Notes under the pieces: generated by a model
The model's input: only the letters and a program-made list of their open reading frames with translations
Database searches by the model: none
What the model was told of the DNA's origin: nothing
Translations under genes and position numbers: made by a program
Origin: Spirochaetia bacterium
Lineage (GTDB): Bacteria; Spirochaetota; Spirochaetia; UBA9216
NCBI GenBank assembly: GCA_963677925.2
Contig: CAXXYH010000004.1
Coordinates: 448,001 to 512,000, forward strand
Reading direction: 5' to 3'
Length of the DNA: 64,000 nucleotides
In this document: piece by piece, positions 32,867 through 64,000 of the stretch
Layout of the letters: each line of letters opens with the position of its first letter
Numbering within the stretch: the first letter of the stretch is position 1

Positions 32867-32868
32867 GC

Positions 32869-38273: not shown

Positions 38274-38409
38274 ATATCAATTATTGCTGCTTTATTCACG
38301 TTTTTAAAACTTGAAATTGAATTCCAGAGAGATTAAATTATAAATATAGACGTGATTTGTTAACCGGATTGCAGGCGTCTTAAAATATAATGCTAAAAGG
38401 AACCTAATA

Positions 38410-40925: not shown

Positions 40926-41430
40926 AAAGCGAATGATGTTCATTGCATCTGAGGATTACTATTTTATCACTTATTCAATTCTACTAATTCTCAAGCATCT
41001 TGATTGTTATACTGAAGAGAAAGCCTTGGCTGATAAGCAAAAATTAAATATGCTCTCAGAATTAGTATCAGACAGAAAATTACTAATCATTCTTGAGCGA
41101 TCTAAAAACCTACAAATTATTATTTCTCGGCCGGATATTAATTACCTTGAAGGTGCGTATGATGTAGTCCAAACGAGGACCGCATTGATAAATAGAGTTC
41201 TTTTTATATTAAATCATCATGACTATATAAGGTTTGGAGAAAAACAGAACGTTTATTTGAATGTAGAAAAAATTGACCATTCGTTCTTTGATGATGACGT
41301 TTTCCAGGATGAAATTGAGAATATAAGGAGAATAAAAAAGCTTTTTTCGCGTGTTAGAACAATGAGGTATGAGAGCCTTAAAGAAAGCGTGTTCTTAAGT
41401 AATGGAGTATTAGCATGGCCGGCCTTATAA
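40915..41430 (+). CDS. lmuC: Lamassu LmuC / ABC-3C middle component
   Basis: Small helical protein overlapping both neighbours; TTG 40915 after GGAGG. Confidence 0.65.
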   Translation: MNPKKRMMFIASEDYYFITYSILLILKHLDCYTEEKALADKQKLNMLSELVSDRKLLIILERSKNLQIIISRPDINYLEGAYDVVQTRTALINRVLFILNHHDYIRFGEKQNVYLNVEKIDHSFFDDDVFQDEIENIRRIKKLFSRVRTMRYESLKESVFLSNGVLAWPAL

Positions 41431-43340: not shown

Positions 43341-43640
43341 TTTTCACATTCATAAAAATAACTAAATCTGCTAAGTCGACAAACAGTTCTAACGGAAGAC
43401 TGTAGACTGATATTGGAACAGGATGGCAATCAATATATGTATAACATAATTGATATTATGCTATATGAAAGCTTAGGTTTTATGTCGTACATATAGATAC
43501 TTTTTTCTAATCAAAATACAGAAAAATTTTGTCATTTGAGTTCATAGAGAAAAAACTACACAACAAGGAAGGGCTACCAAATTTAATTGTAGAAATATTT
43601 CTCAATTCAATTTCAAAGACATAGAGTGTAGTTATACAAA

Positions 43641-44138
43641 TTATTTAATATTGACTTTATATTTTTTTGTATCACTATCAAGTAATAAAAATTGTTCTTC
43701 GATATTGTCTTCTATTAGCTTTATACCATTTGAAATTTCATTGATGCTAATTGGAAAGATGAATTCAAACTGGTTGTCCTTCAGCATGTACTGTTGTTTG
43801 CCATTGGTGGAGATAGTTCCCAGATATGAAAAACGGGAAGTATCGTAGATTGTGACTGCCTGCTGTGGTACGAGTTCTTTGGTTTCTGCTGGTTGTAAAT
43901 TGACTACCTTATAAAACATCTTCTCCAAATAACTTGTAGAGATCTCTTTTTTTGGGGATATCTCTGTTGTTTTGGGTTCAATTTTGGAAGATATTAATTG
44001 AGAGGTAGTGACATTTTCAGTTTTTGTTGAATTGATAAATACCTCTGATGGAAAGATAAACAGAAATACAAGATATACAGCCGCCAACACAATCGCAGCA
44101 ATTAGGATTGTTTTTATTATAATTGTAAACCTTTTCAT
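43641..44138 (-). CDS. Single-TM T2SS-associated protein (GspC/PilP-like position)
   Basis: N-terminal TM, linker, beta-rich C-terminus FSYLGTI..YMLKD; last gene of the gsp operon. Confidence 0.5.
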   Translation of the reverse strand: MKRFTIIIKTILIAAIVLAAVYLVFLFIFPSEVFINSTKTENVTTSQLISSKIEPKTTEISPKKEISTSYLEKMFYKVVNLQPAETKELVPQQAVTIYDTSRFSYLGTISTNGKQQYMLKDNQFEFIFPISINEISNGIKLIEDNIEEQFLLLDSDTKKYKVNIK

Positions 44139-45220
44139 TCAAGTTCCTCTTCATAACGGATATTGCTGATTATCTGTATGATTCTTTGGCCCGAATTGCT
44201 TTCAGAACTGCTGCCCCCTGGGCGGTATGAAAGCTTTATGTCGGGAATTTCTGCGATGATGATTTCGTGCCTCTGATTATTAGTTCTTATTGTTATCTTC
44301 CAGAACCAGGTTTTTGTTCCAAGATAATCGAAGATGATATGGGGTTCATCCTTAACTGAAAAAATGGATTCAAGCTCACTTGTGTCCATTTCGCTTCCGG
44401 TTCTTCGCTGGATAATCGTGTTATAGGTCCTGTCAGGATAGGGCAGGGGATTATCCCCGAAATCATAGGATAGTATTTCTTTAAGAAGTTCCTCCGGGAT
44501 GAAATGGATGTTCATGACAGATCCCGCACAAATGAATGGATATAGTTTCCTTGTCGATGTCCCGAGTATGCTTTCAATCTCGTTGTTCGGGATGACGGTA
44601 TCGTTAATCCTTGCCGTTTGTATTTTCCGTCTGAAGGATTCGGCTTCGAAGTCCCTGCCGGTTCTTGCCTCAAAAAGCCCGGTAAGCGCAAGCTCGTCTG
44701 CAATGTTGATGTTCATGTAGCTGTGGATTGTGATGAAGTCTTCAAGCCCTTTGTCGGAGAAGTATTCCTCCGACAGTATTTGCGGATTTGATATCAGACC
44801 GAGATCATGTCGTAACTGTTCAATCTCAGCCATCGTATGGCTGTCTTTAAAGATAAGTTTACCGATGCCGGTTTCATCCGTAAGCTCATCACGAAAGAAG
44901 TTTGGATTGAACCTGCTTGAAATATCGTTAAGCTCAATTGAAAGCTCTTCTGTAATTAGTGAGCCGACGGTTTCCCATACCGGATCTGTTGGTGAATCGG
45001 ACCCGGGGGTATCATCGTAAAGAAGGCTTTCAATAATATCTTCAGTGATGTCCCGGATGAGCTTCTCCGTTTCGGTATCGGGAAGCCGGGTGACACTCCT
45101 TTTCGAGGATGCAATGAGGTATGACAGTCCGATAAAAAGGATTGAAAGAAAGATTATCAGCATGAACGCGTATGGGGTGGCAAAGCCTTCCCGGAATGAA
45201 TCAGCAGGCCTTCTATTCAT
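44135..45220 (-). CDS. gspK: T2SS minor pseudopilin GspK-like
   Basis: G|FATPYAFMLII prepilin-like start, DISSRFNPN, MNINIA. Confidence 0.75.
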   Translation of the reverse strand: MNRRPADSFREGFATPYAFMLIIFLSILFIGLSYLIASSKRSVTRLPDTETEKLIRDITEDIIESLLYDDTPGSDSPTDPVWETVGSLITEELSIELNDISSRFNPNFFRDELTDETGIGKLIFKDSHTMAEIEQLRHDLGLISNPQILSEEYFSDKGLEDFITIHSYMNINIADELALTGLFEARTGRDFEAESFRRKIQTARINDTVIPNNEIESILGTSTRKLYPFICAGSVMNIHFIPEELLKEILSYDFGDNPLPYPDRTYNTIIQRRTGSEMDTSELESIFSVKDEPHIIFDYLGTKTWFWKITIRTNNQRHEIIIAEIPDIKLSYRPGGSSSESNSGQRIIQIISNIRYEEELE

Positions 45221-45728
45221 TATCATCCCCGTACCGAAGGGAATGGCTTCCAAAAAGAAGCTTGTACTCGTATGCATTACCGTGGGCATCAAAGAAGACG
45301 ATATTTATCCCAGCAGTTATTTCATCGACCATGACCGGTTCAAACTGTCCGTTTTTCAGGTTTTTATAAACGATCTGCAGCTCATCATTTCTTTCAACGG
45401 ATAATCCATCTTCACCGAATGAAAGCCTTAGAAACGAATCCCTGTTACCGTTTAGATAAGGGAGTTCAAGCAGTTTATTACTGCTGCCTGATTCAGGGTA
45501 CTCTTCCCAGAAGGGGATCTGAATCTCATTGAATGAGTCTTTTAAAAGCATGCCCGCCTGCATGGATTCGCGCAGGAAGATCTGCTTCTCTCTGACAGCA
45601 TTGAAACTTGAAAAAAGCTTCTGGCCGCCTATGAACAGCAGGAGCGAACCAAGCGATAGAATAAACACTGCAATAACGGTTTCTGTAAGGGTAAAGCCTT
45701 CTTCAAGCCGGGAGTACTTATTCATCAT
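45213..45728 (-). CDS. Minor pseudopilin (GspJ-like)
   Basis: EEG|FTLTETVIAV class III signal. Confidence 0.75.
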   Translation of the reverse strand: MMNKYSRLEEGFTLTETVIAVFILSLGSLLLFIGGQKLFSSFNAVREKQIFLRESMQAGMLLKDSFNEIQIPFWEEYPESGSSNKLLELPYLNGNRDSFLRLSFGEDGLSVERNDELQIVYKNLKNGQFEPVMVDEITAGINIVFFDAHGNAYEYKLLFGSHSLRYGDDNE

Positions 45729-45936
45729 AGTAAATAAACTTCTCCGTATCGATGAGTTCATTGTTTGCCGCAAGGTACTCAAGGTATGCCGCTTCCTGCC
45801 TGACTGATAAGCGGATTATCGATGAATACAGACCCGCGAACGAGATGATGAAGGCCGAAATTATTAAAACGGCGATGAGGGAATCAAGCAGGATGTAGCC
45901 ATGTGTAAGGCTATTGTGAAGGTTCTTTTTCTTCAA
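45718..45936 (-). CDS. Very short minor pseudopilin (GspI-like)
   Basis: KKKN..HG|YILLDSLIAVLII class III-like signal; TTG start inferred. Confidence 0.6.
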   Translation of the reverse strand: MKKKNLHNSLTHGYILLDSLIAVLIISAFIISFAGLYSSIIRLSVRQEAAYLEYLAANNELIDTEKFIYYDE

Positions 45937-46480
45937 TTTTCTGTTCCAGTTTCGTAATGGCATCGATCGAATATCCAGATTTTCTCAAAACTGCAATATA
46001 TTCCTTGCTTTCGGAATATCTGCCCTCATAGTAGCTGCACACAGCAGCCAGGTAGTATAGCACTGGATCATCTTCATCTATCTTGAAAGCCCTGGAAAGC
46101 AGCTTCTCAGCTTTTTCATAATCACGTTTTTTGATATTTGATTCAATCTCATTCCTGAAATAGGCCATCGATGACATCTTAAGGTACAGCACCTGTTTGG
46201 GATCGAAAAAATCAATCTCAGTTTCTATTGTTTCGAAACCCGGCTTTGTGATGCTTATCTGGTATTGCCCCTCTTTCAGCTCCGGGATTATGAACCTCCC
46301 ATCTATGTCAGTTGTGTATTCCTTATCGGAGTCGACCGTCACTGTTGCTCCGGCGATGGGGCTGCTGTAATTGTCGAATATGATTCCGGCAAGATTGGCC
46401 GGGAAGAAGTTTTCCGGTGTTGATGCACAGCCTGAAAAGATTAGCGCCAATACGGAAAAGATAATGTATCTCTTTTTCAT
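45911..46480 (-). CDS. Lipoprotein with carboxypeptidase-regulatory-like domain and TPR (candidate pilotin)
   Basis: LIFSGC lipobox, PIAGATV..TTDIDGRF..ITKPGF, C-terminal TPR. Confidence 0.75.
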   Translation of the reverse strand: MKKRYIIFSVLALIFSGCASTPENFFPANLAGIIFDNYSSPIAGATVTVDSDKEYTTDIDGRFIIPELKEGQYQISITKPGFETIETEIDFFDPKQVLYLKMSSMAYFRNEIESNIKKRDYEKAEKLLSRAFKIDEDDPVLYYLAAVCSYYEGRYSESKEYIAVLRKSGYSIDAITKLEQKIEEKEPSQ

Positions 46481-47007
46481 GGGTTTTCCTTAGTAAAAGA
46501 TTGAACGGTTACAAAATTGATCATCAAAGACAGGTTGTAGATGTTCTTTGCAGAATTATAGCTTAATGAAACTTGGTCGACATCGATCTTCTTTTTATAA
46601 TTGTACAGGAACTGAAGGTATTCGAGGATGGACCTGATTTCGCCATCGGCCGAAATATTGATGCGCTTTGGATCTGATGATTCGTTTGTGCTGTAATTGC
46701 TTACCGTAACTCGCCTGTTCTTTGCAGCATCGATAACAAGATCGCAGAACTCGTAAAACTTGATCTCATCCTCCGAGAAGAGGGAGGATGCAAGCTTATC
46801 ATAGTTCTGCTGAGACTGCTCGTGTTCTTTTGATAGATCTATATACCCGGTTTGTACCGATGCAAGACTGATATTTTCATTGCCGAGCCTTGATAATTTT
46901 TCCTTATTGCTGTTTATGCTGTTAAGGTTCCAGCTGATAAAGAGTATTATGGGAACGAGCAGGGTGAGCATCAGAATCTTCAACATGAGCAGTCTTTGTC
47001 TATCCAT
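46477..47007 (-). CDS. GspM/PilO-like inner membrane platform protein
   Basis: TM, coiled coil, ferredoxin-like C-terminus (ISADG..ILEYLQFL..VDQVSL). Confidence 0.6.
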   Translation of the reverse strand: MDRQRLLMLKILMLTLLVPIILFISWNLNSINSNKEKLSRLGNENISLASVQTGYIDLSKEHEQSQQNYDKLASSLFSEDEIKFYEFCDLVIDAAKNRRVTVSNYSTNESSDPKRINISADGEIRSILEYLQFLYNYKKKIDVDQVSLSYNSAKNIYNLSLMINFVTVQSFTKENP

Positions 47008-47968
47008 TGAACCGCCCCGATAGTGAGAAACGAAACCCCTCATCATCGTCCTGAATCCTCTGAATGCTTACATCGGAGAACATACCGTTTTTCGAAAGGC
47101 TGTCCGAAACATCGATTGGATTTCTGCTGACAGCTTCCATAGAGAAGGATTTGTTCTGTACCGATATCCTTCTAATCTTGATATCGCCCCCGACAATACT
47201 GTACAGCTCTGTTAAAAGTACATACGGACTGTTTATTTCTTCAGACTCAAATGCATCAATGCTGGATGTGATTTTTGAGATCTCTTTTTCAAGCTCGGTG
47301 TTCTGGGCCTGATACTGGACAATGCGGTTTTGCATTGAGATTCGTTTTGAAACCTCCGTATCTAAAAGTGCCGAGTACTTAAAACTGATGCCGCCAGCCA
47401 GCAGAAGCAGGCTTCCGGCAAGAATATAGAACTCAATGAAGCTGAACGCCCTGCTGTTTCTGATTCTTTTAAAACGGTGGAAATCTGTGAACCGGGGAGT
47501 TTTTAAAATCAGACTTTGATCTAATTGCAGCGGGCTGTCCTCGGGCTTATCCAGGAATATCCATCTTGTGTTGATATCCGGAACTGATAATTCGGAAGCC
47601 CTCAGATCGCTCAACTGGGAACGCTGCGGTATTCCATCTTTTATGAAGATCCTCTCGATAAGTTTTCCATGGGAAATACAGAGGCATTCAATTTCATCAA
47701 GTTTTCCCGAAAGCCCCGGAAGTATGAATGCCGGAATCACCGGTTTTCTTTTTCCAAAATCAGCCGAAGCCGCCTTTGTGATAAAAACGATTACAGCGGT
47801 ATTGGTTCCGAATATCCGGTAGATATATTCATATGCACCGTTGTTTCCAGGATATATGGAATGAATCTTTGAGTCTACGTAATCATCAAGAGATTGAGTT
47901 TCCTTGTCTTTGGGTATATCCAGAAAGCGGACATCGTAATGCTCCCTGGATAAGATATAATCAGACAT
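47000..47968 (-). CDS. GspL/PilN-like protein
   Basis: Cytoplasmic N-domain, single TM, coiled coil, PilN-like C-terminus (FSDVSI..FRFSLSG). Confidence 0.6.
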   Translation of the reverse strand: MSDYILSREHYDVRFLDIPKDKETQSLDDYVDSKIHSIYPGNNGAYEYIYRIFGTNTAVIVFITKAASADFGKRKPVIPAFILPGLSGKLDEIECLCISHGKLIERIFIKDGIPQRSQLSDLRASELSVPDINTRWIFLDKPEDSPLQLDQSLILKTPRFTDFHRFKRIRNSRAFSFIEFYILAGSLLLLAGGISFKYSALLDTEVSKRISMQNRIVQYQAQNTELEKEISKITSSIDAFESEEINSPYVLLTELYSIVGGDIKIRRISVQNKSFSMEAVSRNPIDVSDSLSKNGMFSDVSIQRIQDDDEGFRFSLSGRFNG

Positions 47969-48408
47969 CAGTTATCCCAGGAGGTAATATCCTTGTTCAG
48001 ATCTTCCCCGCCTTCAAGCCCGTCGGCTCCAAATGATCTTATCCCGAAGGGCAGTCCATTCGGGCCGGGAACCGTGTACTCAAACTCGTTTCCCCACGGA
48101 TCTGCAGGCACTTCCTTTTCAAGGTAGGGGCCGTTCCAGTCCTCGGGAACCGGTGAGATATTCGTCTTCTTCCACAGGGCATCGAGGCCCTGATCCTGTG
48201 AAGGAAACTGCTTGTTGTCAAAGAAGTAGGAGTTAAGTGCCAGACTCAGGTTTTCGATCTGGGTCCTGGCCGTAACTACCTTTGCCTTGTCTATGTATTT
48301 GAAGGCCATAAATCCTACAGAGCTTGTGAGTATTAAAACGATTGCAATGACAATCAATGTTTCAACGAAAGTCCAGCCTTCTTCAAGTTTCTTCTTTATC
48401 TCTTTCAT
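47968..48408 (-). CDS. gspG: T2SS major pseudopilin
   Basis: G|WTFVETLIV, FPSQDQGLDAL, WNGPYL..VPADPWGN, SFGADG. Confidence 0.93.
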   Translation of the reverse strand: MKEIKKKLEEGWTFVETLIVIAIVLILTSSVGFMAFKYIDKAKVVTARTQIENLSLALNSYFFDNKQFPSQDQGLDALWKKTNISPVPEDWNGPYLEKEVPADPWGNEFEYTVPGPNGLPFGIRSFGADGLEGGEDLNKDITSWDN

Positions 48409-48423
48409 AAAATCTCCAAATTT

Positions 48424-49476
48424 CTATGCTATCGTACCGAAGAGCGAAAACAGCGGCACAATAAAATTGAGGATGAGGTATATAATTATCGCTCCCACAA
48501 GGATGGTGAGCAGAGGTTCGATTACTCCAAGCAGTCTGGTCGTAAGGTTTTCAATCTCGGATTCGTAGTAGATTCTAAGCTGGGCGAATACAAGCTCCGT
48601 CTGTCCCGTATTCTCCCCGATGCCAGTCCACTGTATCATCCGCGAAGGAATTTCCTTATGGACCGAGAATGCCTTGTGAAGGCCTCGGCCAGAAACGAGA
48701 TCTCGGTTTACCGATGTGAATATCTCCTTAAGCCTTGCGTTGCTGCAAACCTCCTTTGCCTCAAGGACAGCGGAGGATAACGGGATGCCGTGCTTTGTGA
48801 GGGTTTCAACCGCAAAGGTAAAATTGAATATGTCTATTGTCTTAACAATATCAGAGACAAAAGGAAGCCTCAGTATCAGTTTATCCGTTGCCGATTTTAC
48901 ACGCTCAGCTCTCCGTCTGATAACCGCGGTTGCTGCAAACAGCAGGATTAGAAGGATCAACCCAAGGCCAGTAAGCTTTAGCCCGGTTATTCTTGCCTGA
49001 AAGGATTCGAGCTGAGAACCATTTCCAGCAATCTCGCTAAACAGCTCCTCTATCTTTGGGATTCCGAAGAGCATCAGAAAGAAGAGCCCTGTAAAAAGCA
49101 TTACAAGCACCATCAACGGATAGATGGAAGCGTTTATGAACTTGTCACGGACCTTTTTATTCCTTTCAAGGTAGGTCTTAAGTGTAGGCAGGATTGTGGA
49201 TAATGAGCCTATCCGATCGCCGATGTTTACAAGCCCGCTGTACAATGGCGGAAGGCTGTAATTGCCCTTTTCGAAGAGGCTTGAAAGTGAGTTTCCCTTC
49301 TTTAGTCCCTGTTGGAGGTACTCAGTCAGTTCCCTAAGCCTCTTCCCTGATGTGAAGCTGTTAATCATCTGAATCGAGTTGTATACCGAAAGCCCCGAGT
49401 TAAGCAGAAGCGAGAGGTTTGAAGTGAAATCAAGCAGCTCGCGTGTTTTAAGGCGTTTTGCTTTATTATTACTCAT
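48424..49476 (-). CDS. gspF: T2SS inner membrane protein F
   Basis: LLNSGL, SIYP, GENTG, IEPLL duplicated T2SSF domains. Confidence 0.9.
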   Translation of the reverse strand: MSNNKAKRLKTRELLDFTSNLSLLLNSGLSVYNSIQMINSFTSGKRLRELTEYLQQGLKKGNSLSSLFEKGNYSLPPLYSGLVNIGDRIGSLSTILPTLKTYLERNKKVRDKFINASIYPLMVLVMLFTGLFFLMLFGIPKIEELFSEIAGNGSQLESFQARITGLKLTGLGLILLILLFAATAVIRRRAERVKSATDKLILRLPFVSDIVKTIDIFNFTFAVETLTKHGIPLSSAVLEAKEVCSNARLKEIFTSVNRDLVSGRGLHKAFSVHKEIPSRMIQWTGIGENTGQTELVFAQLRIYYESEIENLTTRLLGVIEPLLTILVGAIIIYLILNFIVPLFSLFGTIA

Positions 49477-50942
49477 ATCACCCTCTCTATTTCAGATAAG
49501 TCGGTGATGCCTTCCATGGTTTTTTGAAGCCCGTTTTTAAAAAGTACTGAAAACTCTTCTTTTTCAAGTTGTGCAGAAAGGGTGTTGTTGGGCGAGTTTC
49601 TGACTATCAGCTCTTCGAGCTCTGGTGATGTTACAAAGCATTCTGCAACCGTAGTTCGTCCCGAATAACCTGTATAGTTACATTTGAGGCAGCCCTGATG
49701 GTGAAAGCTTGAATCGGTCTCGAGTCCGTATTTTGCATAGATGGACCTTTGGGCGTTTGAGAGTTTCTTTTCTGTTTTACAATCAGGGCAGAGAACCCTG
49801 ACCAGCCTCTGGGCAACCGCGCCCCGAAGAACCGCCGCAAGCAGGTATGATTCGACCCCCATATTGATGAGCCTGTGAACGGATGATACTGAATCATTGG
49901 TATGAAGTGATGAAAGAACAAGATGTCCCGTTAGGGCGGCCCGGACAGCAAGTTGTGCGGTATCGGAATCTCTTATTTCTCCGACCATAATGATATTCGG
50001 ATCCTGCCTTAGAACACGGCGAAGAAGTGAATGGAACGTAAGTCCTATTTCATCATTCGTCTGAATCTGGTTGATCCCATCTATTCTGTATTCGACAGGA
50101 TCTTCAATTGTCACGATCTTGTTTGACTTATGATCAAGGTTTCTGATTATGGCATTCAGGCTTGTGGTTTTTCCCGAACCCGTAGGTCCGGTAAACAGAA
50201 CAAGACCATGCGGCTGATTATACAGATGGGTAATACTGGCTTTCACGGAATCGGAAAAACCAAGATCCTCAATCCCGAGAAGCGAGCCCTTCCTGTTGAA
50301 AAGCCGGAGTACTATTGATTCACCTCCGGTAATAGGAACGATGGAAAGCCGCATGTCAAGTTCTACACCGGCAATGCCAACCGAAATACGGCCGTCCTGC
50401 GGCAGCCTTCTTTCCATAATATTGAGGTCTGCCATAATCTTGATTCGGCTTGATACAGGTGAAAAGTATGATGCATCGTATTCCATTACCGGCACTAGCA
50501 CACCGTCAATACGGTAGCGTATAGTAAGTTTGTCTGAACGGCCTTCGATATGAATATCCGATACTTTTTTCTGGATGGCCTCGATGAAGATCGAGTTGAC
50601 TAGGTTGATTATAGGCGCGTCATCTGCAAAGGTGTCGATCTCTATATGGTTGTTTACGCCCGCAGAAGATTCGTAGCCCGAAGCCCCTGATAACGCCCTT
50701 CCGAGGTAAATTGTAAAATCCTCCGGTTCAATCTCTACAAACTCGACCTTTCCTCGATGAAAATCTTCTATCTCATCGATCAGTTCCCGGCTATACGGTT
50801 GGCATATACCGATTATCGATAGTCCTTCGTTGTTTACTCCGAGCTGAAGCACCTTGTTTTTCTCCATGAACTTAATGGCATATTGTTCATGAAGCGGGGG
50901 AAGAGGCTCAAATTCCTTTATGGATGACTTTCTGATATTCAT
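49473..50942 (-). CDS. gspE: T2SS ATPase
   Basis: SDIHIE, RLPQDGR, GPTGSGKTT, TIEDPVE, LRQDPNIIMVGEIRD, two CxxC. Confidence 0.95.
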   Translation of the reverse strand: MNIRKSSIKEFEPLPPLHEQYAIKFMEKNKVLQLGVNNEGLSIIGICQPYSRELIDEIEDFHRGKVEFVEIEPEDFTIYLGRALSGASGYESSAGVNNHIEIDTFADDAPIINLVNSIFIEAIQKKVSDIHIEGRSDKLTIRYRIDGVLVPVMEYDASYFSPVSSRIKIMADLNIMERRLPQDGRISVGIAGVELDMRLSIVPITGGESIVLRLFNRKGSLLGIEDLGFSDSVKASITHLYNQPHGLVLFTGPTGSGKTTSLNAIIRNLDHKSNKIVTIEDPVEYRIDGINQIQTNDEIGLTFHSLLRRVLRQDPNIIMVGEIRDSDTAQLAVRAALTGHLVLSSLHTNDSVSSVHRLINMGVESYLLAAVLRGAVAQRLVRVLCPDCKTEKKLSNAQRSIYAKYGLETDSSFHHQGCLKCNYTGYSGRTTVAECFVTSPELEELIVRNSPNNTLSAQLEKEEFSVLFKNGLQKTMEGITDLSEIERVI

Positions 50943-50944
50943 GA

Positions 50945-53116: not shown

Positions 53117-53331
53117 TTATAGATTTACCTTGTTAAATTAGTCTACAAATTATTTTATAGGTAGTCTCTTTGTCTGTCAATTTCTATGGAAATAAAAGGA
53201 ATTATTAAAATATTCAAAATCAAGATTTTTGAGAAAATTATTGATCGAAGGTAAAACATGTGCTAATGTTCTGAGCAAATTCATTAATAATAAAGTTAAT
53301 TTAAAATAGAAAGGAAAAAAATGACATCTTC

Positions 53332-53760
53332 TTATCTACCATTTAGTAGAAAGAGTATAATCGCACCAATAGTCATAAAAGGTGCAAAAGGTATTTTTAA
53401 TTTTTTAATCTCAAAATTTAATACTACTTTTAGAGTTATCAGATACAAAATCGCGATTATACTTGCTGAAGTAATTGCAAATAACCAATTCCAGATTCCT
53501 AATAACACTGAGACAGATGCGGAAAGTATGGCATCTCCAAGACCCATTCCTCCTTTTGTAAGCAATCGAATAAAGAATAAGAATAAGAAACCTACAAAAA
53601 TACGAATTAAAATTTGTAACAAATTTGAATTGTTAATCCAAGAATTAATACTCACAAGTATAAGTATTGCACAGTTTAGGGCAATTGGGATTTTGAGTGA
53701 TTTAAGATCGAAAATTGCAACGATAATTAGGAGTAATATTACTATTGTCGATAATGTCAT
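53332..53760 (-). CDS. Minimal A24 prepilin peptidase (no methyltransferase/Zn domain)
   Basis: AIFDLK and GMGLGD catalytic aspartates, IPFAPF tail; only 142 aa. Confidence 0.88.
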   Translation of the reverse strand: MTLSTIVILLLIIVAIFDLKSLKIPIALNCAILILVSINSWINNSNLLQILIRIFVGFLFLFFIRLLTKGGMGLGDAILSASVSVLLGIWNWLFAITSASIIAILYLITLKVVLNFEIKKLKIPFAPFMTIGAIILFLLNGR

Positions 53761-53862
53761 AATTTAATTTCCAAATATGTGGAATATATTGAATTATTTA
53801 AAATTATTAAAGTCTTGTTTTAAATGTTTATAAAATTATTGATTTTAAAAATGGAGATTTAA

Positions 53863-56800: not shown

Positions 56801-57285
56801 TAAGTTTGACTATTACTGAAGGTACGACAGTCATAACACCTCAGAATACCGGGATTGTAGTATCTGCTGGTGCAAGCCTAACTATTAGCGGAAGTGCAGA
56901 TAATAAAGTGAATATTGGTCCAGTACTGACAGTTGAGCCATATCCCTTTTGGAATGGTTTAGTTATAAATGGAATGTCGAATATTACCTTTACAAACTTG
57001 AAAAATGGAGTAAGAGCTATCGCCGCAGGTCCTGGTTCTACAGTTACTCTAGATGATTGTAATTTCATTGACAACAAAATCGGTCTGCACATTGTCGGGA
57101 CGTCAGTAATCCTGTCAGGAGAAAATAGTTTTATCGGTAATTTATGGTATGGCATCAAGGAAGATTCAGTTATAGAACATCCGGATCTTAGTGGATGTCT
57201 ATTTAATGATAATAAAAATGATTACTACCATCAAGACTTACTGATCCTAAATGGTGATGATCTTATTGAATATATTGGAAATTAA
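53863..57285 (+). CDS. Large secreted protein: Ig-like repeats, PKD domain, C-terminal right-handed beta-helix
   Basis: Signal peptide MKKIILL..GIYA; DxVGN repeats; YWDFGDG..YTVVLTV (PKD); WSGEHTLTGEVVIP..FIDNKIG..YGIKED. Confidence 0.85.
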   Translation: MKKIILLFIFVLSTISGIYAGIFYETRNYDFTISHSKNSCISGTSNSPTNAWVRLTLSSTAVEVDGYDVGTAFTITVDGKSTLESINWEGGSKIIDIIIPKGKYVNIKAKTTYFSNQYLTLRPTANVTAAFKKELVDDNRPKDGAEIQIPGGSIYNKTDFYISAEAVDIGTSLYYYFPYKSSGFEEKSGIGKYIFNVEKYISDTQSIMILENIEEVMKKVDHLSILNDDLIGSGKYKISGVVYDAYGNGPTPLNSKTVLIDADAPSAPELISVSYDGGTDSEDVVLSDLGSEKNIGFYRSPLYLSASIPTDNPNDADCRSGIDSYSQTMRINETEYEKVSVVNFSTAEEGGKYDASAYYFDNVGNKGEEATFSFYIDNKSPDSPEFQTTPNCIPGPNDKSLIFVPVDNQGYLAWEPSVDGTEEWQSGTDEYSYKLEMIDSSGDPAFSAFIVEDSAEESKIGINSDGLYQTIPDELSMGSYTLTLNVSDKVGNQIDINTNKFTVNVSYAPKPVDINTINLVDQGDGEFSLEWNYDDNDGAEGYYFDVKVYKTSSPKDSYEIWNYDDDTTPITWGEGITYSCSLPVDELRTKVNYTARVYVMNADGFPMYTDLVFNLPNKPAQLTSDMFEIPENMQMFGKGFPDFQLNSIDETVLQDDEGDLLGLKLFYKNQVSSIFKEINAGVLGDSPVLEINADTDGTPELSTGVYDYYINVVEYYEDWDGELKSWNEFERWPIAVNNSFVVDGNAPKGTLLAMSKTDNYLTIKATSLSDGSGDTVSGVSEIVLWNDGTGYTGEIVDYNSTTFATNVASGKGIRVAIADGDEITIEGWPFETEDGRVTASMVVIDDVGNESETVKIIEEGTNQAPSIDVYVSEKTLRVGEVWECPDSPAFYDAIDGEGDDLSWYWDFGDGTSSEEEYPIKTYTERGEYTVVLTVSDWWEQSDSAEFTFYAENTTEGTLLISENWSGEHTLTGEVVIPTGLSLTITEGTTVITPQNTGIVVSAGASLTISGSADNKVNIGPVLTVEPYPFWNGLVINGMSNITFTNLKNGVRAIAAGPGSTVTLDDCNFIDNKIGLHIVGTSVILSGENSFIGNLWYGIKEDSVIEHPDLSGCLFNDNKNDYYHQDLLILNGDDLIEYIGN

Positions 57286-57302
57286 AAAAGGTGAGAGTAA
57301 AA

Positions 57303-60300
57303 ATGAAAATGACAAGAAAAATATCAATTATTATAGTTTTATTATTTATATCACTGTTTAATGTCCATGCTTCGGCAGGAAATCTTGAGTTGAGTATAAT
57401 TGGATCCTCCAATAATACTGATGTGTTGAATCCTGCTGAATATGCAGCAGATGATAATATACTGACTTATTGGGCGCTTGACCCTGAAGAAACTGATGGC
57501 TGGTTTGAAGTCAGCCTGGATGAATTATCATGTATTTATGCAATAGAGCTTTCCGGAACACTTGATACCGAAAATGTTATCAACTTTGAATACGATTCAG
57601 ATGGAATCTGGAAAAGTTTTATCAATACTGAACTTACTTCTATTGGCTCAAGTGGCGAATATATTGATCTATCTGGTTATAAAATAGTAACCGATAAAAT
57701 CAGGGTTTATCTGCAAGGTGAAGATACGAGTTATAGTTTCATTGAAGAGTTTAGTATTTTTGGTGAAAGTTATTCTGACACATATCATAAATTGGGGATT
57801 AGTAATGTTAGCGGAGAGGAAAACATTTTTTACCCGTTATCAAATCTTACGGATGAGAATACAAAAACTTACTGGGAGACTGAAAGTATAGGTACCTGGA
57901 TAGTAAGTATACTTCAGGGGGCTAAAAACTGGATAACTGACTGTTTTGAGACTGGTAACTTTAATTTTAGAAAAAGAAGCAATTTATGGGAAGATGAAAA
58001 CGGGGCAGTTATAAGTTTAGCGGAAACTTCGACAATCTATCGAATAAAAGCTTATCTTTCGCAAGATTATTCAGGAAAGATAATACTCAATAAATTGGAT
58101 GATGATGAGTGGACTGAAATTTCAGTAATAGAAGAAGGAACTGAACCGGGCTGGTATATTATTGATTTACCCGATGGGCTTAATACTGATTCTATTCAAA
58201 TAATATCTGAGGATACGGACTGGTGGTCATTGCTCTTGGGTCTCGATACCGCAGAAATTACAGGACTTTGTGAAATAGAGTTCTGGGGAAAATCAGATTT
58301 ACCTTCGAGTAAAGAGCTAACGTTTTATACTGAAGATACTAACATAGTTGAAGGATTAAACAGTGTTTTTTCTACCTCTGAATCAGAAAAGTATGAAGTG
58401 GAACTTGTTGTTGATGCAGACGCAGGTGATTTTACATGTATCGAACTAAATGGTACTCAAGTACAAATCCCTTTTATTCAGGAAATCGAGGGAGCTTTTT
58501 ATTATCAGAGCATAATTGATAACGATTTACTCTGGAACGGAGACAACTTCTTAAGATTAGAATCCTCTGATTATCACCTACTAAGTGGTTCGATAGTTGG
58601 TCTTTCTAAAGATGGAAGCCTTTCTTTCAGCGATGGCATAAAAGATTATTTTACAGCAGATTCAACCGGATATAATGAGATAGAATTTGATTCAGAAATT
58701 TCACTTGAAGAAGTCCTATTGACAACTAATGATGTTTCCAATGAAAGAGTTTATTACAGATCAGAAAATCAATGGTTTGAATTGGCCTGGAGTGGAGTAA
58801 CTGAGCATTCAGAAATATATTCAATTTTTCTTTCAGAATCAGGAAATAATACTAATCTGGTGGCTGATTGTATACGAATTGAAGGCTTGACATCAGGAGC
58901 GCAATACGGGGTTACTGTTAAAGGCAGTAGAATATCAGATAGTGCACCGCAGATTCAGATGTACTGGCCAAAAAATGGTGAAGTTATTGAACAAAGCGGA
59001 CTGGGTACAATGTTCGCGGTAGGTTATGTTGATGATGAGAATGCTGTTATCACTGTTAATGATGAAGAGGCACAGAATATCGGTAACCTTTTCTGGATTT
59101 CAAATATGCCTGGTGATGTTATCACAGATGGAGAATATGCACTTCATATAGCTGCAACAGATTCAGAGGGAAGGACAACTGAGAAAACAATATACTGGTC
59201 TAATATTGACAGTAATGTCTACAATTGTGATCTCGGTGAAGATATTATTTATACTCTTGATGACAGTATCACAGTAGAAGGGGGTACAAATCCTTCTGCG
59301 ACTGTTTATATAAATGATGAAATAGTTGACGGCAGTAGCCAGCGATATTCCAAAGATATTGAACTTGCTCCGGGACTTAATATTATTACGATTAAATTTG
59401 TTCATCGGACACAGGGGGTATTCGCACTTCTTCAAAGACGTATTTTTCTTGTCACAACAGAACCCGTTCTTGAAATTAGCCAGCCTAACGATATTGATTA
59501 TACCTCAGCACAGCAAATTGATGTGTCAGGAACTTTGTCAGTATCTGGAGCCTACGAAATTGAATGCGAAGGTTATGAAGTGCAAGACGATGGAACTTTG
59601 TTTACTGTTCCTTCAGTGACTCTTGTAAGTGGAGCCTACAATGATATTAAAGTAACTTTAACCGATCAGTTTGGAAGAACATCAACCGATAGCGTCTCTG
59701 TTTTCTGCGATATAAATGCTCCGGTGTTAACAGGTATAACACCAGAAAGCGGGTCAATATTATCTGAGAGTGTAAATACTTTTGTAATCACAACCTCAGA
59801 TGAAAGTGAGCTTTCAGTTTTTATGGATGGACTGGTAGTCCCTGGAGGAAGCGGAATATTTGAAAAGACTATTTCGCTTTTAGATGGGTTTTATTCTCTT
59901 TCTCTGGTTTTAAAAGATAAGGCTGGAAATACTACACAGGTTTATCTTGATTACACAGTGGATACTGTACCTCCGGTTGATTTTACAGTCGATGTAACCC
60001 CTGCAGGTTGGACCTCTGATAATCAGCCTATAATCAGTTTTGAAACAACAGATGCCACTTCCGGTGTTGATTGTTATGAGTTGTCAATTGATGAAGGCAG
60101 TTTCTATGTAATTGAAAGTCCATACCAGCTGCCAGTTCAGAGTGAAGGTGAGCATACAATTGCTGTGAGAGCTGTAGATAACGCAGGACATATGACATAT
60201 TCATATGCAGAAACAAAAACAGATACAATTCCGCCTGATATTTTGACAGATATTGAGATTGTCCCAGGCAATGGTCAACTTGTCTTAAAATGGGAAGATG

Positions 60301-63300
60301 GAAATGATGATGTAATTGCATATGAAATCGTGCGTACTCCTGCCTGGGATTTAGATGAACAAATCAGAGTTGATCGAGCAGATGAGATACAGGAGTATCT
60401 TGATACAGAAGTTATAGACGGGAATACATATTCATATATTATCAGATCTGTAGATAGAGCGGAGAATAAAGGTGTATTTTCAACTGCAAATAGCGTGATA
60501 CCTGGTATTGAGACTGAATTATTAATTGAAGATGGTATTACAAAGGTAGAGTATGAGACGGCTACTTTATATTTAAAGAAGGAAGGATTACCAGGGGATG
60601 CTGTTAGTGTAAGAATTGCTGAAGCAGATCCAGAGTGGCAAACTGAAGCTGATGAAGATTTTGAACATGATTTTGTTGGTGCAGTATATAATTTTTCACT
60701 TCTTGACAGTAATGGAGAAGATGTTTCATCCGGAGATGTTTTTTCTCAACCATACATTGGAATAATTGACTATAATCCCGAATTACTTCCAGAAGGCTTT
60801 AATGAACAAAACTTAAGTGTATATACTTTTGATGGACGATGGGGTCGCTGGGAACGCATTGAGGATTGCTCAGTAGTTCCTGAGAATAATCAGATTGTAT
60901 TTACTTCAATGCATTTTTCAATGTATGCACCAGTAGCAACTTCAGTTCAGGATCTATCACCTGAGGAAATTGCTGATGCAGGATATTCTCCATTTGGCAC
61001 TTATGTTAACCATGAAGGGTTTACTGTAAGTCCACAAGGAGGAAATGCTCACACAAGTATGACCGAACTTGTGCTAACCGGGCCAAGTGGTTTTGATTTT
61101 GAATTAAAACGATATTATGATTTGACCGTTGCCAAAATGGATACCAGAGCAGATATTCCTTCATGGGCAATAAAATATTTAGAAAACCAGGGTGATTATG
61201 CATACTCTATGGGTAAAGGTTGGAGGTTGAACCTTCCGTATATTAAAAATGCATCTTCACAACAGTATCTTGTGATGCCGGATGGAAGTATGTATGGATT
61301 TGAATCCCTTGAATTAGAAGATTCATCAATAATCTCTACTAATAGAACACTTTATCTTGAAGGTCATACCGGAGAACATTTTAGTTTGATGGTTAAGCAA
61401 TCAAAAAAGGAAGAAGAAGTATATTTTATTGGAGCAGAAGGTGTTGTTGAACATACATGGACTTCGCTTTATTACATCCTGACTTTAAATGATGGTACAA
61501 GATATGTAATGGATTCAAAAGGAAGAACAAAGAAGATATTGAGCCCTGAAAGTATTGAACAAACAGGCTTTCTGGGATTCCTAAATCTTAGTTCTGGATT
61601 TGAAGTTAATATAAGTTATGTAGACGATGGATATGAAATTTCACAGATTGAAGATTCAATTGGCAGGAAGATCAATTTTGAATACGCTGGGATAAGTGAT
61701 TCACTCGCAGTCCCATATATCACAAAAATTAGTTTAGATTCAAATGATCCTTATGGAAGAAGTATTAGTTATACCCAAAATGATGGTTATTTAACTTCAT
61801 GTACAGATGTAGGTGGAAGAACTTGGACATACAGCTATGATAATGCGTATTATCTCGGAGGTGCATCAAATCCGATACCTTTTAATCTTACCGATGCTCT
61901 TGATGATTATTCAGATGATTCGGAACTTAATGATTTAATCGATAAATTATCAGAACCAACTTCAAATTATACTTATAAACCACTATATGCTATAGAAGGC
62001 TCTGGTAAAGGACGTATTGAAGTAACTTATGACACAGATAGTCAAAGTTTGGATGGTGAAGATTATTTAAAGGTAGTTACAAGACAAGTTGCTGTATTCA
62101 ACGATCATGCAGCGGGAAGTGATGAAAGCGTCCGAGCAACTTGGTATGATTACAATTTTACTTACAATGATGATATTGAAGGGTATTATCTTTCTAAAAC
62201 TATAGTAAATGAATTAAATGATAACAGGTACACAGTTTATAATTATGAATACAGAAAACTTGTAGAAACATATTGGAATGAAACAGATGACGGAGAGATT
62301 GATGAAGTAACTGTTTATGCATCAGAGGATGCAGGAAATAGAATAAGTAGTACTATATTTTATGAGAAGATAAATAATGACATAGACAACCTTAGTCTTT
62401 TGAAAGATAAAAGCATAGAATATCTTGCAGACACTGATATTAATCCTTCTGCTGAAACTATAAAGCATGGTAGTGGCAGTGATTACCTAACTATGAGCTA
62501 TAGCTATGATGGATGGGGTAACAAGGAAACAGTCACAGAAGAAAATCACTCTAGTGGAAGAATACGGAAAAATATTACATATAGAACATTCTCAAGTGGA
62601 AATCAGGTGGTTGGGGCTTCTTTTAAAGACTATTCAAATAGCGGTTTAACTAATGGTAGTATCCCAGCGAGAATAAAGAGTCTTATTATCAAAGAGGAAA
62701 TTGACAATTATTCACCGAGTATTGTCTCAAATGGAACGGCTTCGAATGATGTTGGAACAGCAAAGAAGGAATATATATATTACTCTTATAACGACGATGG
62801 AAGGATAACTGGCAAAGCGATCTGGGATTCTTCAAATAATAAGTGGCAAAAAACTGACTATGTTTGGAATTCTGTTGGTGATATGACTCAGGTAACTAAT
62901 CCTGATGGGCATATAATCGCATATACTTATGATGATGACCATTATCTGTCTGGTAAAACAGAGAAAGCAATTAAGGATGTAGATGGAAATTCATCTGATC
63001 TTATTTGGCTATATGATTATGATTGGACGGGATGGAAAGTTAGTGAAACTGACCCAAAGAATCAAGTAATCACACTGACATATGACAAACTTGGAAGAAT
63101 TACTAGTAAGAGTGAACCAGGTGATGCAGGTGGGATCTATAAAACCTCTGTAAGTTATAATGATAGTCTCGGAAGTTTAAGTTCTGTTATGACTGACACA
63201 TTAGGTAGAGAGGTAAAAAGAGAATATAATGATCTTGGTCAGATGGTAAAACAAAGTAGCAATCTTGATTCTGACAAAGCTGCAATTGTAGAGTTATCAT

Positions 63301-64000
63301 ATGATCGCTGGGGAAATGTTGTAGAAATGATAAATCCGAATATGCGGATGGATGATTCTGGCGATAAAAATGAGTATATAACCTATTATAGCTACAACGC
63401 CCTTGGTCGCCTGGACAAGATATCTTACCCATATGACTCTGATACCGGATCTGTATATAAGTCGATGGATTATAATTATAATACCAATACACTCACAATT
63501 ACCGATGAAGAAGGTAATCAAACCGTAGAACTTTATGATATGAAAGGAAATATCCTAAAAAGAACTCAAAGTGTAGATGGTGAATCAATAATTACATCAT
63601 TCTGGTATGATGGTTTAGGTAATATGATTGCACAACAGGGACCTATTTCTGATGCAGTAATTACTAACCAGTTTAACAGTTTAAATCAGTTGGTAAATGT
63701 AAAGCAACCCTCTGAAACATTTTATGAAAATGGTGTGTTAACTACCTTAAGGCCAGAAGTCTCTTATTATTATGATGAAAATGGAGATGTAGTTAAAGAA
63801 TCAAAAATTGTATCGGATGGGGAGAGAATTACACTAACTGAATATGATGAGCTTGGAAGAACCATTGCAGTAGAGTATAAAGACGGAGATGAAGTTCTTG
63901 CGAGTGAAAAATATTATTATGATGAGCTAAACAACCTTGTGAAGAAAATAGATCCTAACAATCTTGTTACAAATTACACATACACACCAAGAAACAATAT
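57303..64000 (+). CDS. Giant secreted Rhs/YD-repeat protein, >2232 aa, truncated by the window end
   Basis: Frame from ATG 57303 checked at multiple points and absent from the stop-requiring ORF track. Contains a signal peptide, two discoidin-like units, Ig/FN3, an HFS motif, DUF6531-like VSPQGG..ELKRYYD..MGKGWRLNLP, and YD repeats (YDKLGR, YDRWGN, YNALGR, YDGLGN, YDELGR). Confidence 0.9.
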   Translation, partial: MKMTRKISIIIVLLFISLFNVHASAGNLELSIIGSSNNTDVLNPAEYAADDNILTYWALDPEETDGWFEVSLDELSCIYAIELSGTLDTENVINFEYDSDGIWKSFINTELTSIGSSGEYIDLSGYKIVTDKIRVYLQGEDTSYSFIEEFSIFGESYSDTYHKLGISNVSGEENIFYPLSNLTDENTKTYWETESIGTWIVSILQGAKNWITDCFETGNFNFRKRSNLWEDENGAVISLAETSTIYRIKAYLSQDYSGKIILNKLDDDEWTEISVIEEGTEPGWYIIDLPDGLNTDSIQIISEDTDWWSLLLGLDTAEITGLCEIEFWGKSDLPSSKELTFYTEDTNIVEGLNSVFSTSESEKYEVELVVDADAGDFTCIELNGTQVQIPFIQEIEGAFYYQSIIDNDLLWNGDNFLRLESSDYHLLSGSIVGLSKDGSLSFSDGIKDYFTADSTGYNEIEFDSEISLEEVLLTTNDVSNERVYYRSENQWFELAWSGVTEHSEIYSIFLSESGNNTNLVADCIRIEGLTSGAQYGVTVKGSRISDSAPQIQMYWPKNGEVIEQSGLGTMFAVGYVDDENAVITVNDEEAQNIGNLFWISNMPGDVITDGEYALHIAATDSEGRTTEKTIYWSNIDSNVYNCDLGEDIIYTLDDSITVEGGTNPSATVYINDEIVDGSSQRYSKDIELAPGLNIITIKFVHRTQGVFALLQRRIFLVTTEPVLEISQPNDIDYTSAQQIDVSGTLSVSGAYEIECEGYEVQDDGTLFTVPSVTLVSGAYNDIKVTLTDQFGRTSTDSVSVFCDINAPVLTGITPESGSILSESVNTFVITTSDESELSVFMDGLVVPGGSGIFEKTISLLDGFYSLSLVLKDKAGNTTQVYLDYTVDTVPPVDFTVDVTPAGWTSDNQPIISFETTDATSGVDCYELSIDEGSFYVIESPYQLPVQSEGEHTIAVRAVDNAGHMTYSYAETKTDTIPPDILTDIEIVPGNGQLVLKWEDGNDDVIAYEIVRTPAWDLDEQIRVDRADEIQEYLDTEVIDGNTYSYIIRSVDRAENKGVFSTANSVIPGIETELLIEDGITKVEYETATLYLKKEGLPGDAVSVRIAEADPEWQTEADEDFEHDFVGAVYNFSLLDSNGEDVSSGDVFSQPYIGIIDYNPELLPEGFNEQNLSVYTFDGRWGRWERIEDCSVVPENNQIVFTSMHFSMYAPVATSVQDLSPEEIADAGYSPFGTYVNHEGFTVSPQGGNAHTSMTELVLTGPSGFDFELKRYYDLTVAKMDTRADIPSWAIKYLENQGDYAYSMGKGWRLNLPYIKNASSQQYLVMPDGSMYGFESLELEDSSIISTNRTLYLEGHTGEHFSLMVKQSKKEEEVYFIGAEGVVEHTWTSLYYILTLNDGTRYVMDSKGRTKKILSPESIEQTGFLGFLNLSSGFEVNISYVDDGYEISQIEDSIGRKINFEYAGISDSLAVPYITKISLDSNDPYGRSISYTQNDGYLTSCTDVGGRTWTYSYDNAYYLGGASNPIPFNLTDALDDYSDDSELNDLIDKLSEPTSNYTYKPLYAIEGSGKGRIEVTYDTDSQSLDGEDYLKVVTRQVAVFNDHAAGSDESVRATWYDYNFTYNDDIEGYYLSKTIVNELNDNRYTVYNYEYRKLVETYWNETDDGEIDEVTVYASEDAGNRISSTIFYEKINNDIDNLSLLKDKSIEYLADTDINPSAETIKHGSGSDYLTMSYSYDGWGNKETVTEENHSSGRIRKNITYRTFSSGNQVVGASFKDYSNSGLTNGSIPARIKSLIIKEEIDNYSPSIVSNGTASNDVGTAKKEYIYYSYNDDGRITGKAIWDSSNNKWQKTDYVWNSVGDMTQVTNPDGHIIAYTYDDDHYLSGKTEKAIKDVDGNSSDLIWLYDYDWTGWKVSETDPKNQVITLTYDKLGRITSKSEPGDAGGIYKTSVSYNDSLGSLSSVMTDTLGREVKREYNDLGQMVKQSSNLDSDKAAIVELSYDRWGNVVEMINPNMRMDDSGDKNEYITYYSYNALGRLDKISYPYDSDTGSVYKSMDYNYNTNTLTITDEEGNQTVELYDMKGNILKRTQSVDGESIITSFWYDGLGNMIAQQGPISDAVITNQFNSLNQLVNVKQPSETFYENGVLTTLRPEVSYYYDENGDVVKESKIVSDGERITLTEYDELGRTIAVEYKDGDEVLASEKYYYDELNNLVKKIDPNNLVTNYTYTPRNN

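Follow-up and report, generated by a model that had tools for sequence, protein, structure and literature searches.

How Rhs toxins are deployed by diderm bacteria that lack a type VI secretion system (T6SS) is an open question, and in diderms these toxins have been studied almost only as T6SS cargo. The question is raised in a concrete form by a locus of a Spirochaetia bacterium (UBA9216; assembly GCA_963677925.2, contig CAXXYH010000004.1, positions 448,001-512,000), in which genes resembling those of a type II secretion system (T2SS) lie back to back with the genes of a large PKD-domain protein and a giant Rhs protein. In the present study this whole stretch of 64,000 nucleotides, referred to as the window, was analyzed with a focus on window positions 43641-64000. 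The module of T2SS-like and Rhs genes is real and conserved, and its gene content, its duplication, its conserved linkage, the polymorphic tips of its Rhs proteins and the lack of a T6SS were directly observed. It offers a complete secretion machine physically paired with an Rhs protein of 370 kDa. Judged from the sequences, it is probable, though by no means certain, that the PKD and Rhs genes and an immunity gene of their own make up a toxin module whose two large proteins are exported or displayed by the T2SS-like machine beside them.

The concept of T2SS-linked Rhs proteins has a precedent in Xanthomonas. Bcn-A of Xanthomonas perforans, an RHS bacteriocin of 1398 amino acids (aa), was reported to lose its activity in an xpsD secretin mutant (PMC7259588), and the families XRhs F VIII of Xanthomonas and RRhs F II of Ralstonia were described as linked to a gspG gene in a preprint which itself states that T2SS secretion of these gspG-linked Rhs proteins is not functionally confirmed (10.1101/2025.05.08.652813). 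The case for T2SS dependence so far consists of one Xanthomonas mutant and this linkage. An earlier note on the present DNA, which had Sec-exported Rhs proteins come from monoderms, was overstated in view of both. A table in PMC3482391 gives 'T2SS' as the export mode of many RHS toxin domains, spirochaetes included, and for T. denticola and T. pedis PMC8049484 records RHS/YD repeats together with a table entry 'complete secretion systems: 0'. In Omnitrophota, T2SS-like loci were found upstream of giant genes and a role in predation was proposed (10.1101/2023.11.21.568195). No description of a spirochaete cluster of T2SS and Rhs genes turned up in a full-text literature search, and the complete, duplicated and class-wide pairing in spirochaetes appears to be undescribed.

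The locus consists of a minus-strand operon and, across a short spacer, two large plus-strand genes. Open reading frames (ORFs) were compared with Pfam and NCBIfam models; prepilin-type N-termini, topologies, the lipobox and signal-peptide-like starts are readings by eye. The features are as follows.

43641..44138, minus strand: last operon gene, 165 aa, bitopic, GspC-like candidate by position and topology only
44135..45292, minus strand: GspK-like tip pseudopilin, ORF of 385 aa, by predicted fold
45213..45782, minus strand: minor pseudopilin candidate, ORF of 189 aa, cleavage motif G/FTLTE; N_methyl 5.7e-4, below cut-off
45718..45963, minus strand: small prepilin-type protein, 81 aa, minor pseudopilin candidate; weak ComGE match, E 0.0043
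45911..46480, minus strand: lipoprotein with CarboxypepD_reg (Pfam 1.1e-11) and TPR, lipobox; candidate secretin pilotin
46477..47046, minus strand: GspM/PilO-like candidate, 189 aa, bitopic
47000..47968, minus strand: GspL-like candidate, 322 aa, with cytoplasmic domain, one transmembrane segment and periplasmic domain
47968..48408, minus strand: GspG major pseudopilin, 146 aa; Pfam T2SSG 6.2e-35, TIGR01710 125.1 bits
48424..49476, minus strand: GspF-type inner-membrane platform protein, 350 aa; Pfam T2SSF 8e-40
49473..50942, minus strand: GspE-type assembly ATPase, 489 aa; Pfam T2SSE 3e-126
50945..53116, minus strand: GspD-type secretin, 723 aa, with signal peptide; Pfam Secretin 1.8e-31, Secretin_N 2.2e-11
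53332..53760, minus strand: short A24 prepilin peptidase, 142 aa, without methyltransferase domain; Pfam Peptidase_A24 7.5e-12, 46.1 bits (cut-off 26.5)
53761..53862, no strand: AT-rich divergent spacer, 102 bp, read from the sequence
53863..57285, plus strand: PKD protein, 1140 aa, Sec-signal-like start, Ig-like/PKD domains; Pfam PKD_4 4.6e-12, Big_13 1.6e-8
57291..64000 and on to window-equivalent 67328, plus strand: giant Rhs polymorphic toxin by its RHS_repeat and RHS core matches, 3345 aa in full

ORFs and family matches agree with the earlier note on a gsp operon with its own prepilin peptidase, the first gene on the machine side of the spacer, facing away from two large genes. Its labels fared unevenly: D, E, F and G are borne out by family models and the K-like one by its fold, whereas the L-, M-, I-, J- and C-like proteins were matched by no family model. 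The secretin reaches 109.4 bits with Pfam Secretin (cut-off 27.5) and 44.2 bits with Secretin_N, and GspE carries a Walker A and two CxxC motifs. The best NCBIfam matches of GspD, GspE and GspF are T2SS models, all three below the equivalog cut-offs (TIGR02517, 112.7 versus 351.35 bits; 496.9 versus 630.25 bits; 183.9 versus 424 bits, respectively), and as far as sequence tells, the membership of GspE and GspF holds at the superfamily level. GspG, with a prepilin cleavage motif and Glu+5, alone exceeds its equivalog cut-off (125.1 versus 88.85 bits). No operon ORF matched the GspH, GspI or GspJ families, and the M- and C-like candidates matched nothing in Pfam or NCBIfam. The lipoprotein shows TPR_19 below cut-off (8.1e-5) and a weak NCBIfam match to PilW (E 0.0023).

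For the K-like protein, whose sequence profile gave nothing useful against PDB sequences, an AlphaFold2 model was made from an alignment of 12 homologues (mean pLDDT 84.4). When the PDB was searched with it by Foldseek, the first six matches were GspK/XcpX chains without exception (E 2.7e-4 to 1.7e-2, prob 0.82-0.99), led by 9a1f_T (E 2.7e-4, prob 0.99) and including 6utu_I and 3ci0_K; the next unrelated match has E 0.9, and the TM-scores to GspK are low (0.27-0.43). Since these best matches are all GspK/XcpX, the operon is predicted to possess a T2SS tip pseudopilin.

Whether the machine could instead be a type IV or competence pilus, with the Rhs protein unrelated to it or only displayed on the pilus, has to be considered here, as GspE, GspF and GspD, besides falling below the T2SS equivalog cut-offs, also match the PilB, PilC and PilQ models, and as the L-like protein, although conserved in related loci, gives only faint hints of PilN (Pfam E 0.076; profile against PDB sequences E 0.79). 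We regard this as highly improbable: GspG passes the cut-off of the T2SS major pseudopilin, the modelled fold of the 385-aa protein resembles that of GspK/XcpX, and neither a PilT-type nor any third PF00437 ATPase occurs in the genome, in which each of the two copies of the module has one such match.

On the other side of the spacer the picture of two large proteins with Sec signals, one of them an Rhs protein, was confirmed at full length. The PKD gene stops 5 nt before the start of the Rhs gene, and, apart from those in its own genus, full-length relatives of the PKD protein are confined to one other spirochaete; by eye its C-terminus resembles parallel beta-helix repeats, of which Pfam detects none. 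The Rhs ORF, of which 2236 aa lie inside the window, is extended by the genome sequence to 3345 aa. It begins with a signal-peptide-like segment, followed within the ~1300 N-terminal residues by Ig-like domains and a weak match to F5/8 type C (discoidin) below the Pfam cut-off; Glucodextran_B and Big_13 domains are matched as well. RHS_repeat matches in 15 stretches (1.3e-72) and the core with 32.2 bits (PF03527) or 90.1 bits (TIGR03696, cut-off 32.5). In the full-length Pfam scan no SpvB or TcdB mid domains were found; a faint match to TcaA_3rd_4th (E 0.0037) is below cut-off. The core end, tip and small downstream ORF to which the earlier note had pointed are all present: DPxGL stands at aa 3146-3150, the tip (tip 1) has 195 aa, and 20 bases after the Rhs stop follows an ORF of 154 aa with one N-terminal membrane segment (window-equivalent 67348-67812).

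A complete second module with the same gene order was detected by tblastn of the window proteins against the genome, on contig C1 at 118317-142956. Its Rhs protein of 3391 aa (TIGR03696 93.4 bits) is 64% identical to that of the window over 3209 aligned positions (aa 1-3189). Identities between the modules are 84% for GspD, 84% for GspE, 78% for GspF and 94% for GspG, whereas they amount to 42% for the PKD protein, 37-38% for the A24 peptidase and 29-65% for the remaining components, among them 51% for the K-like and 29% (tblastn) or 31% (MAFFT) for the C-like proteins. The genome holds exactly two secretins, two GspE-type ATPases of PF00437 and two Rhs ORFs, each trio adjacent, and all 18 of its RHS_repeat matches fall in the two Rhs ORFs. 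All genes are intact although every gene pair shows saturation at synonymous sites (pS 0.59-0.85), so the duplication is old and both copies have been maintained; recent gene conversion between the modules is excluded by the same saturation. A plasmid location of the second copy is likewise excluded by smpB and metabolic genes on its flanks. In the second module, gspD and the prepilin peptidase gene are separated by an ORF of 103 aa for a ParE-family toxin (C1:132905-133216). Markers of a T6SS or of WXG export, i.e. TssC (PF05943), Hcp (PF05638), PAAR (PF05488), VgrG (TIGR03361) and WXG100, gave no match anywhere in the genome, on whose completeness of 99.6% the genome-wide absences rest; what had been stated for the locus with regard to PAAR, VgrG, Hcp and WXG thus holds for the genome.

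The two Rhs proteins differ in a way that bears on their function. Their identity is 47-87% per block of 100 columns up to the core end and ~20% beyond, and the second one is followed by an ORF of 176 aa with a signal-peptide-like start, which is unrelated to the 154-aa ORF. For tip 1 and the 154-aa ORF no informative Atlas match was obtained (best for tip 1 0.90, unnamed clusters) and no homologue was found among proteins of 343-2000 aa; that tip 1 acts on membranes is only a guess from its richness in glycine and from the membrane anchor of the ORF downstream. Tip 2, the C-terminal 242 aa of the C1 Rhs protein (C1:118320-119045), has nine relatives among 1.84 billion representatives, several of them preceded by an Rhs core end, and in the alignment Gln, Cys and Asp are invariant and His is kept in 8/9 sequences. 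Its model (mean pLDDT 86.3) has no Foldseek match at E <= 0.001; weak rows comprise ComA C39, LapG, Tae4, a papain-like toxin and staphopain, and residues 91-242 align to the PCAT1 peptidase domain (VIA Z 7.1, 109 residues) beside many rows of helical hairpins. From the conserved residues and these weak structural matches, tip 2 is a probable papain-fold cysteine peptidase toxin, and the signal-peptide-like start of the ORF that follows suggests the envelope of the target as its site of action. None of the nine family members belongs to a Pfam family, and tip 2 defines a small unannotated family of putative toxin domains.

Were both proteins exported chiefly for attachment or aggregation, as a giant adhesin or surface structure rather than a toxin, this would suit the ~1300 N-terminal residues with their Ig-like domains and sub-cut-off discoidin-type match, and giant adhesion-type proteins were reported beside T2SS-like loci in Omnitrophota (10.1101/2023.11.21.568195). 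Moreover, neither tip matches a known toxin family. This explanation is nevertheless improbable, as it does not account for paralogues with a common Rhs body whose tips, directly from the core end on, and whose following small ORFs are unrelated, nor for the orphan cassettes of core plus tip that stand in arrays downstream of the main Rhs gene in relatives (G168, G264, G096 and G286), nor for relatives of tip 2 that follow Rhs core ends elsewhere with the residues named above conserved.

The distribution of the module was surveyed in a class sample of 301 Spirochaetia genomes, in which a secretin was counted if above the Pfam cut-off, an Rhs core was defined by TIGR03696, and the two were called linked if the core lay at most 25 kb from the secretin on the same contig. 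Both were present in 55 genomes, only a secretin in 17, only an Rhs core in 37 and neither in 192 (odds ratio 16.8, relatedness uncorrected); 72 genomes thus have a secretin and 92 an Rhs core, and cores occur in 55/72 secretin-bearing versus 37/229 secretin-less genomes. Linkage was found in 25 of the 72, in 13 families (f1, f8, f9, f22, f30, f33, f34, f35, f40, f42, f47, f50 and f57), and rises to 14 of 20 secretin loci (hand count) in assemblies of at most 10 contigs, many of the other genomes being fragmented. With random placement of the Rhs gene, adjacency would be expected in 3.75 of the 55 genomes, and none of 200,000 simulations exceeded 13 (run with a count of 24).

When 40 kb of DNA around 20 secretins, 17 of them chosen as linked and three as unlinked, were mapped with the window proteins, the same machine gene set was found in all 20, including the TPR lipoprotein (20/20), and homologous short peptidases lie beside gspD in 12/20. 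An Rhs protein of 1681-3495 aa is present in 16 of the 17 linked loci (split in two ORFs in G178), G046 having only fragments. The genes occur in at least five orders: divergent, downstream on the same strand, pilD-D-E-F-G-Rhs on one strand (G264), convergent (G178) and upstream on the same strand (G273). In G095, G168 and G178, too, the Rhs gene comes after that of a large PKD-type protein.

The neighbourhoods of the closest gsp homologues, on which the earlier note had staked its reading, are Rhs-linked: this holds for the C1 paralogue, for both loci of a sister genome and for a further family with GspE at 80% identity. The sister genome, which is among those with the nearest GspE relatives in public genomes, has both modules, with PKD and Rhs proteins 93-98% identical at one locus and a PKD protein 41% identical at the other. 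The GspE tree was made by a quick method from rows picked for linkage and shows breadth, not frequency.

Outside the class, the phylum sample comprised 151 genomes, and the results on Rhs cores cover the matches listed. Among these, 37 genomes have both families, and only G353 has them adjacent within 25 kb, with G341 at 27 kb; genomes with a canonical GspD of ~600 aa (~180 bits) show no adjacency, and their Rhs proteins of ~2300-2500 aa are encoded hundreds of kb away or on other contigs. The exceptions G353 and G341 have gspD/E/F beside Rhs proteins of 2853 and 3667 aa, respectively, in a cluster of the same kind. Adjacency accordingly goes with the spirochaete-type machine and is not a by-product of owning both systems. 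The cluster of G341 (C5:5793-37083) is co-directional, with a TPR lipoprotein, gspD-E-F-G, proteins of 1723 and 1031 aa and the 3667-aa Rhs protein with a signal peptide.

As to their N-termini, nearly all of the ~20 linked Rhs proteins that flank a T2SS have signal-peptide-like starts, whereas the ~2000-aa Rhs proteins of G160 and G237, which have no T2SS, start without a signal peptide; the numbers are small, and this fits two classes of spirochaete Rhs proteins. The T2SS-flanking Rhs proteins of G118 and G096 (~2030 aa) have twin-arginine-like starts (RREFL and RKEFL) instead of Sec-type ones, which suggests that they may be exported to the periplasm in folded form before the outer-membrane step.

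How, then, might the module work? The minus-strand operon would build a T2SS-like machine from the A24 peptidase, GspD with the TPR lipoprotein as its pilotin, GspE, GspF and the L- and M-like parts, in which a GspG pseudopilus would be capped by the GspK-like protein. The divergent operon would give the main cargo, i.e. the PKD/Ig accessory protein and the 3345-aa Rhs protein, both of which would reach the periplasm by Sec. The Rhs shell would fold around the C-terminal tip, which would be cut at the conserved core end, and the machine would carry both proteins through the outer membrane, to the cell surface or into the medium, where the N-terminal discoidin/Ig array would bind neighbour cells and the variable tip kill them. 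A small envelope-located immunity protein from the downstream ORF would protect the producer. The C1 module would follow the same scheme with another tip, the probable papain-fold cysteine peptidase, and another immunity gene. From the sequences we infer export through the neighbouring secretin, toxicity and immunity alike.

Several points weigh against this scheme. For the channel of a secretin, an Rhs shell in folded form would be a very large cargo. No model in Pfam or NCBIfam recognises the L-, M- and C-like candidates, and both tips and both downstream ORFs match no known toxin or immunity family in Pfam. The GC content of 36% for the PKD and Rhs genes versus 41-48% for gspD to gspG could point to a separate origin. 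A search for RNA runs over window positions 50000-59000 gave none that covers the locus. With regard to linkage, the sampled genomes are kin, and counts exaggerate their independence; among the linked cases, those of G046, G115, G207, G234 and G293 consist of Rhs fragments or orphan tips, and that of G181 is a secretin fragment at a contig end. Machine and Rhs protein also occur apart: the same operon is found with no Rhs gene within 40 kb in G009, G036 and G232, 17 of the 72 secretin-bearing genomes are without any Rhs core, 37 genomes have Rhs cores without a secretin, and no GspE-type ATPase reached the cut-off in any of the 10 Rhs-bearing genomes tested for it. Since Rhs genomes without secretin or GspE exist, some spirochaete Rhs proteins leave the cell otherwise or never.

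It is from the last group of findings, and from the gene order which kin have in common, that another explanation draws its strength, namely that the machine is a general T2SS for many exoproteins, next to which the Rhs and PKD genes lie by inherited synteny or shared regulation, with the Rhs protein leaving by vesicles, lysis or an unknown path. We consider it unlikely. A general T2SS has no need to be duplicated together with Rhs and PKD genes and kept so over saturating divergence, nor would it explain an adjacency that outlasts at least five rearrangements in 13 families and is rare where a canonical T2SS and Rhs proteins coexist (1/37 among the matches listed). The lack of signal peptides in the Rhs proteins examined in genomes without a T2SS, G160 and G237, is likewise at odds with it.

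Export by the neighbouring machine may be taken one step further, to an old secretin pathway dedicated to giant Rhs toxins in spirochaetes, in which each machine is matched to its own cargo. This we hold to be possible but doubtful. Matched pairs of machine and cargo are suggested by GspD, GspE, GspF and GspG staying at 78-94% identity between the modules, with the putatively cargo-facing K-like and C-like proteins, peptidase and PKD protein at 31-51%. All five genomes of genus g38 (2.8-2.9 Mb) lack a GspE-type ATPase over the cut-off, as do five further Rhs-rich genomes without a secretin; the secretin may be the part that matters most, since this GspE-less genus keeps a secretin of 400 aa directly upstream of an Rhs protein of 3283 aa. 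In the g38 genomes G240 and G286, secretins of 400-405 aa with lipoprotein genes stand directly upstream of Rhs proteins of 3227-3283 aa, and in G286 (C1:751342-794833) about a dozen further Rhs cassettes follow the main one.

The two diverged machine-cargo pairs in one cell constitute an internal replicate in which specificity is directly testable, and the sister classes are a natural negative control for a pattern conserved over at least 13 families of Spirochaetia. If export holds true, the substrate range of secretins would be wider and many Rhs/YD genes of spirochaetes would be explained, host-associated treponemes as listed in PMC8049484 included; if the pathway is dedicated as well, it would be a distinct route of Rhs delivery for diderms without a T6SS and would stretch the known size limit of secretin cargo.

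Compared with described systems, the module comes close to several and coincides with none. With Bcn-A, XRhs F VIII and RRhs F II it has in common a diderm Rhs toxin with an immunity gene, here a candidate, and a proposed exit by T2SS instead of T6SS (PMC7259588; 10.1101/2025.05.08.652813). However, Bcn-A has 1398 aa and depends on the general Xps system encoded elsewhere, as its description reads (PMC7259588), whereas here a full set lies beside a 3345-aa Rhs protein and was duplicated with it; the linkage reported for the Xanthomonas and Ralstonia families is to gspG only (10.1101/2025.05.08.652813), in contrast to a complete set of secretin, ATPase, platform, pseudopilin and peptidase genes. 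WapA of Bacillus subtilis, as quoted in PMC7259588, resembles the present protein in its signal peptide, long YD/Rhs body, polymorphic C-terminus and downstream immunity gene (a candidate here). Being from a monoderm, WapA has no outer-membrane step, in contrast to the spirochaete with its outer membrane and linked secretin system. T6SS-delivered Rhs effectors likewise have an Rhs shell, a core end, a variable tip and an adjacent immunity gene (again a candidate here), but here PAAR, VgrG, Hcp and TssC are missing from the genome and the Rhs protein has a signal peptide and an N-terminus of ~1300 aa with Ig-like and weak discoidin-type matches.

With the Gsp/Xcp/Pul systems the machine has in common the secretin, a tetracysteine GspE, GspF, GspG, a GspK-like tip pseudopilin and a prepilin peptidase. 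It differs from them in core proteins below the equivalog cut-offs, in C, H, I, J, L and M components unrecognised by family models, in a 142-aa peptidase with the A24 domain only and in a CarboxypepD_reg-TPR lipoprotein within the operon; in bits against Pfam Secretin, the canonical GspD of sister classes reaches ~180 versus ~113 here. The Omnitrophota loci, as presented in their description, also have gspD/E/F with genes for class III signal peptides directly before giant secreted or surface proteins, but belong to another phylum, and the giant proteins there do not belong to the Rhs toxins with their tips and immunity genes (10.1101/2023.11.21.568195).

With respect to mobility, the earlier note had seen a self-contained and possibly mobile module downstream of a tRNA-integrated island. 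The self-contained module stands by its gene content and recurrent linkage, and the island is real with its tRNA-Leu, integrase and stretch of low GC:

32782-32868: tRNA-Leu
33020-34159: tyrosine integrase

The island (32782-43446) comprises ~10 kb of DNA with 30-33% GC and ORFs without a family match. It ends before the operon, and the C1 copy lies among housekeeping genes (smpB and metabolic genes) with no integrase or transposase beside it; mobility of the module, whose duplication is old, is therefore not upheld. In a relative, L003, whose T2SS proteins are 94-100% identical, DNA is shared only from window position 43446 on, with unrelated DNA beyond, which makes the island a variable insertion beside the T2SS-Rhs module and no part of it.

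Within the locus, GC content is 30-37% in the peptidase, PKD and Rhs genes versus 41-48% from gspD to the K-like gene, and low GC (33-38%) is also seen in the accessory T2SS genes of the second module. A gap of 215 bp (53117-53331) separates the peptidase gene from gspD. The strongest sigma-70-like match in the region (11 of 12; minus strand, 53180-53152) falls into this gap upstream of gspD, which may thus be transcribed from a promoter of its own. Promoter-like matches were not above shuffled expectation, in the spacer as in the region (50 versus 40.6 +/- 5.2), and terminator-like matches were no more frequent than in shuffles either (13 versus 10.5 +/- 3.2). In the island beside the tRNA-Leu gene, an AAA_23/SMC-like ATPase of 641 aa (41415-43340) is preceded by ORFs of 410 and 177 aa, and the island may be a defence island.

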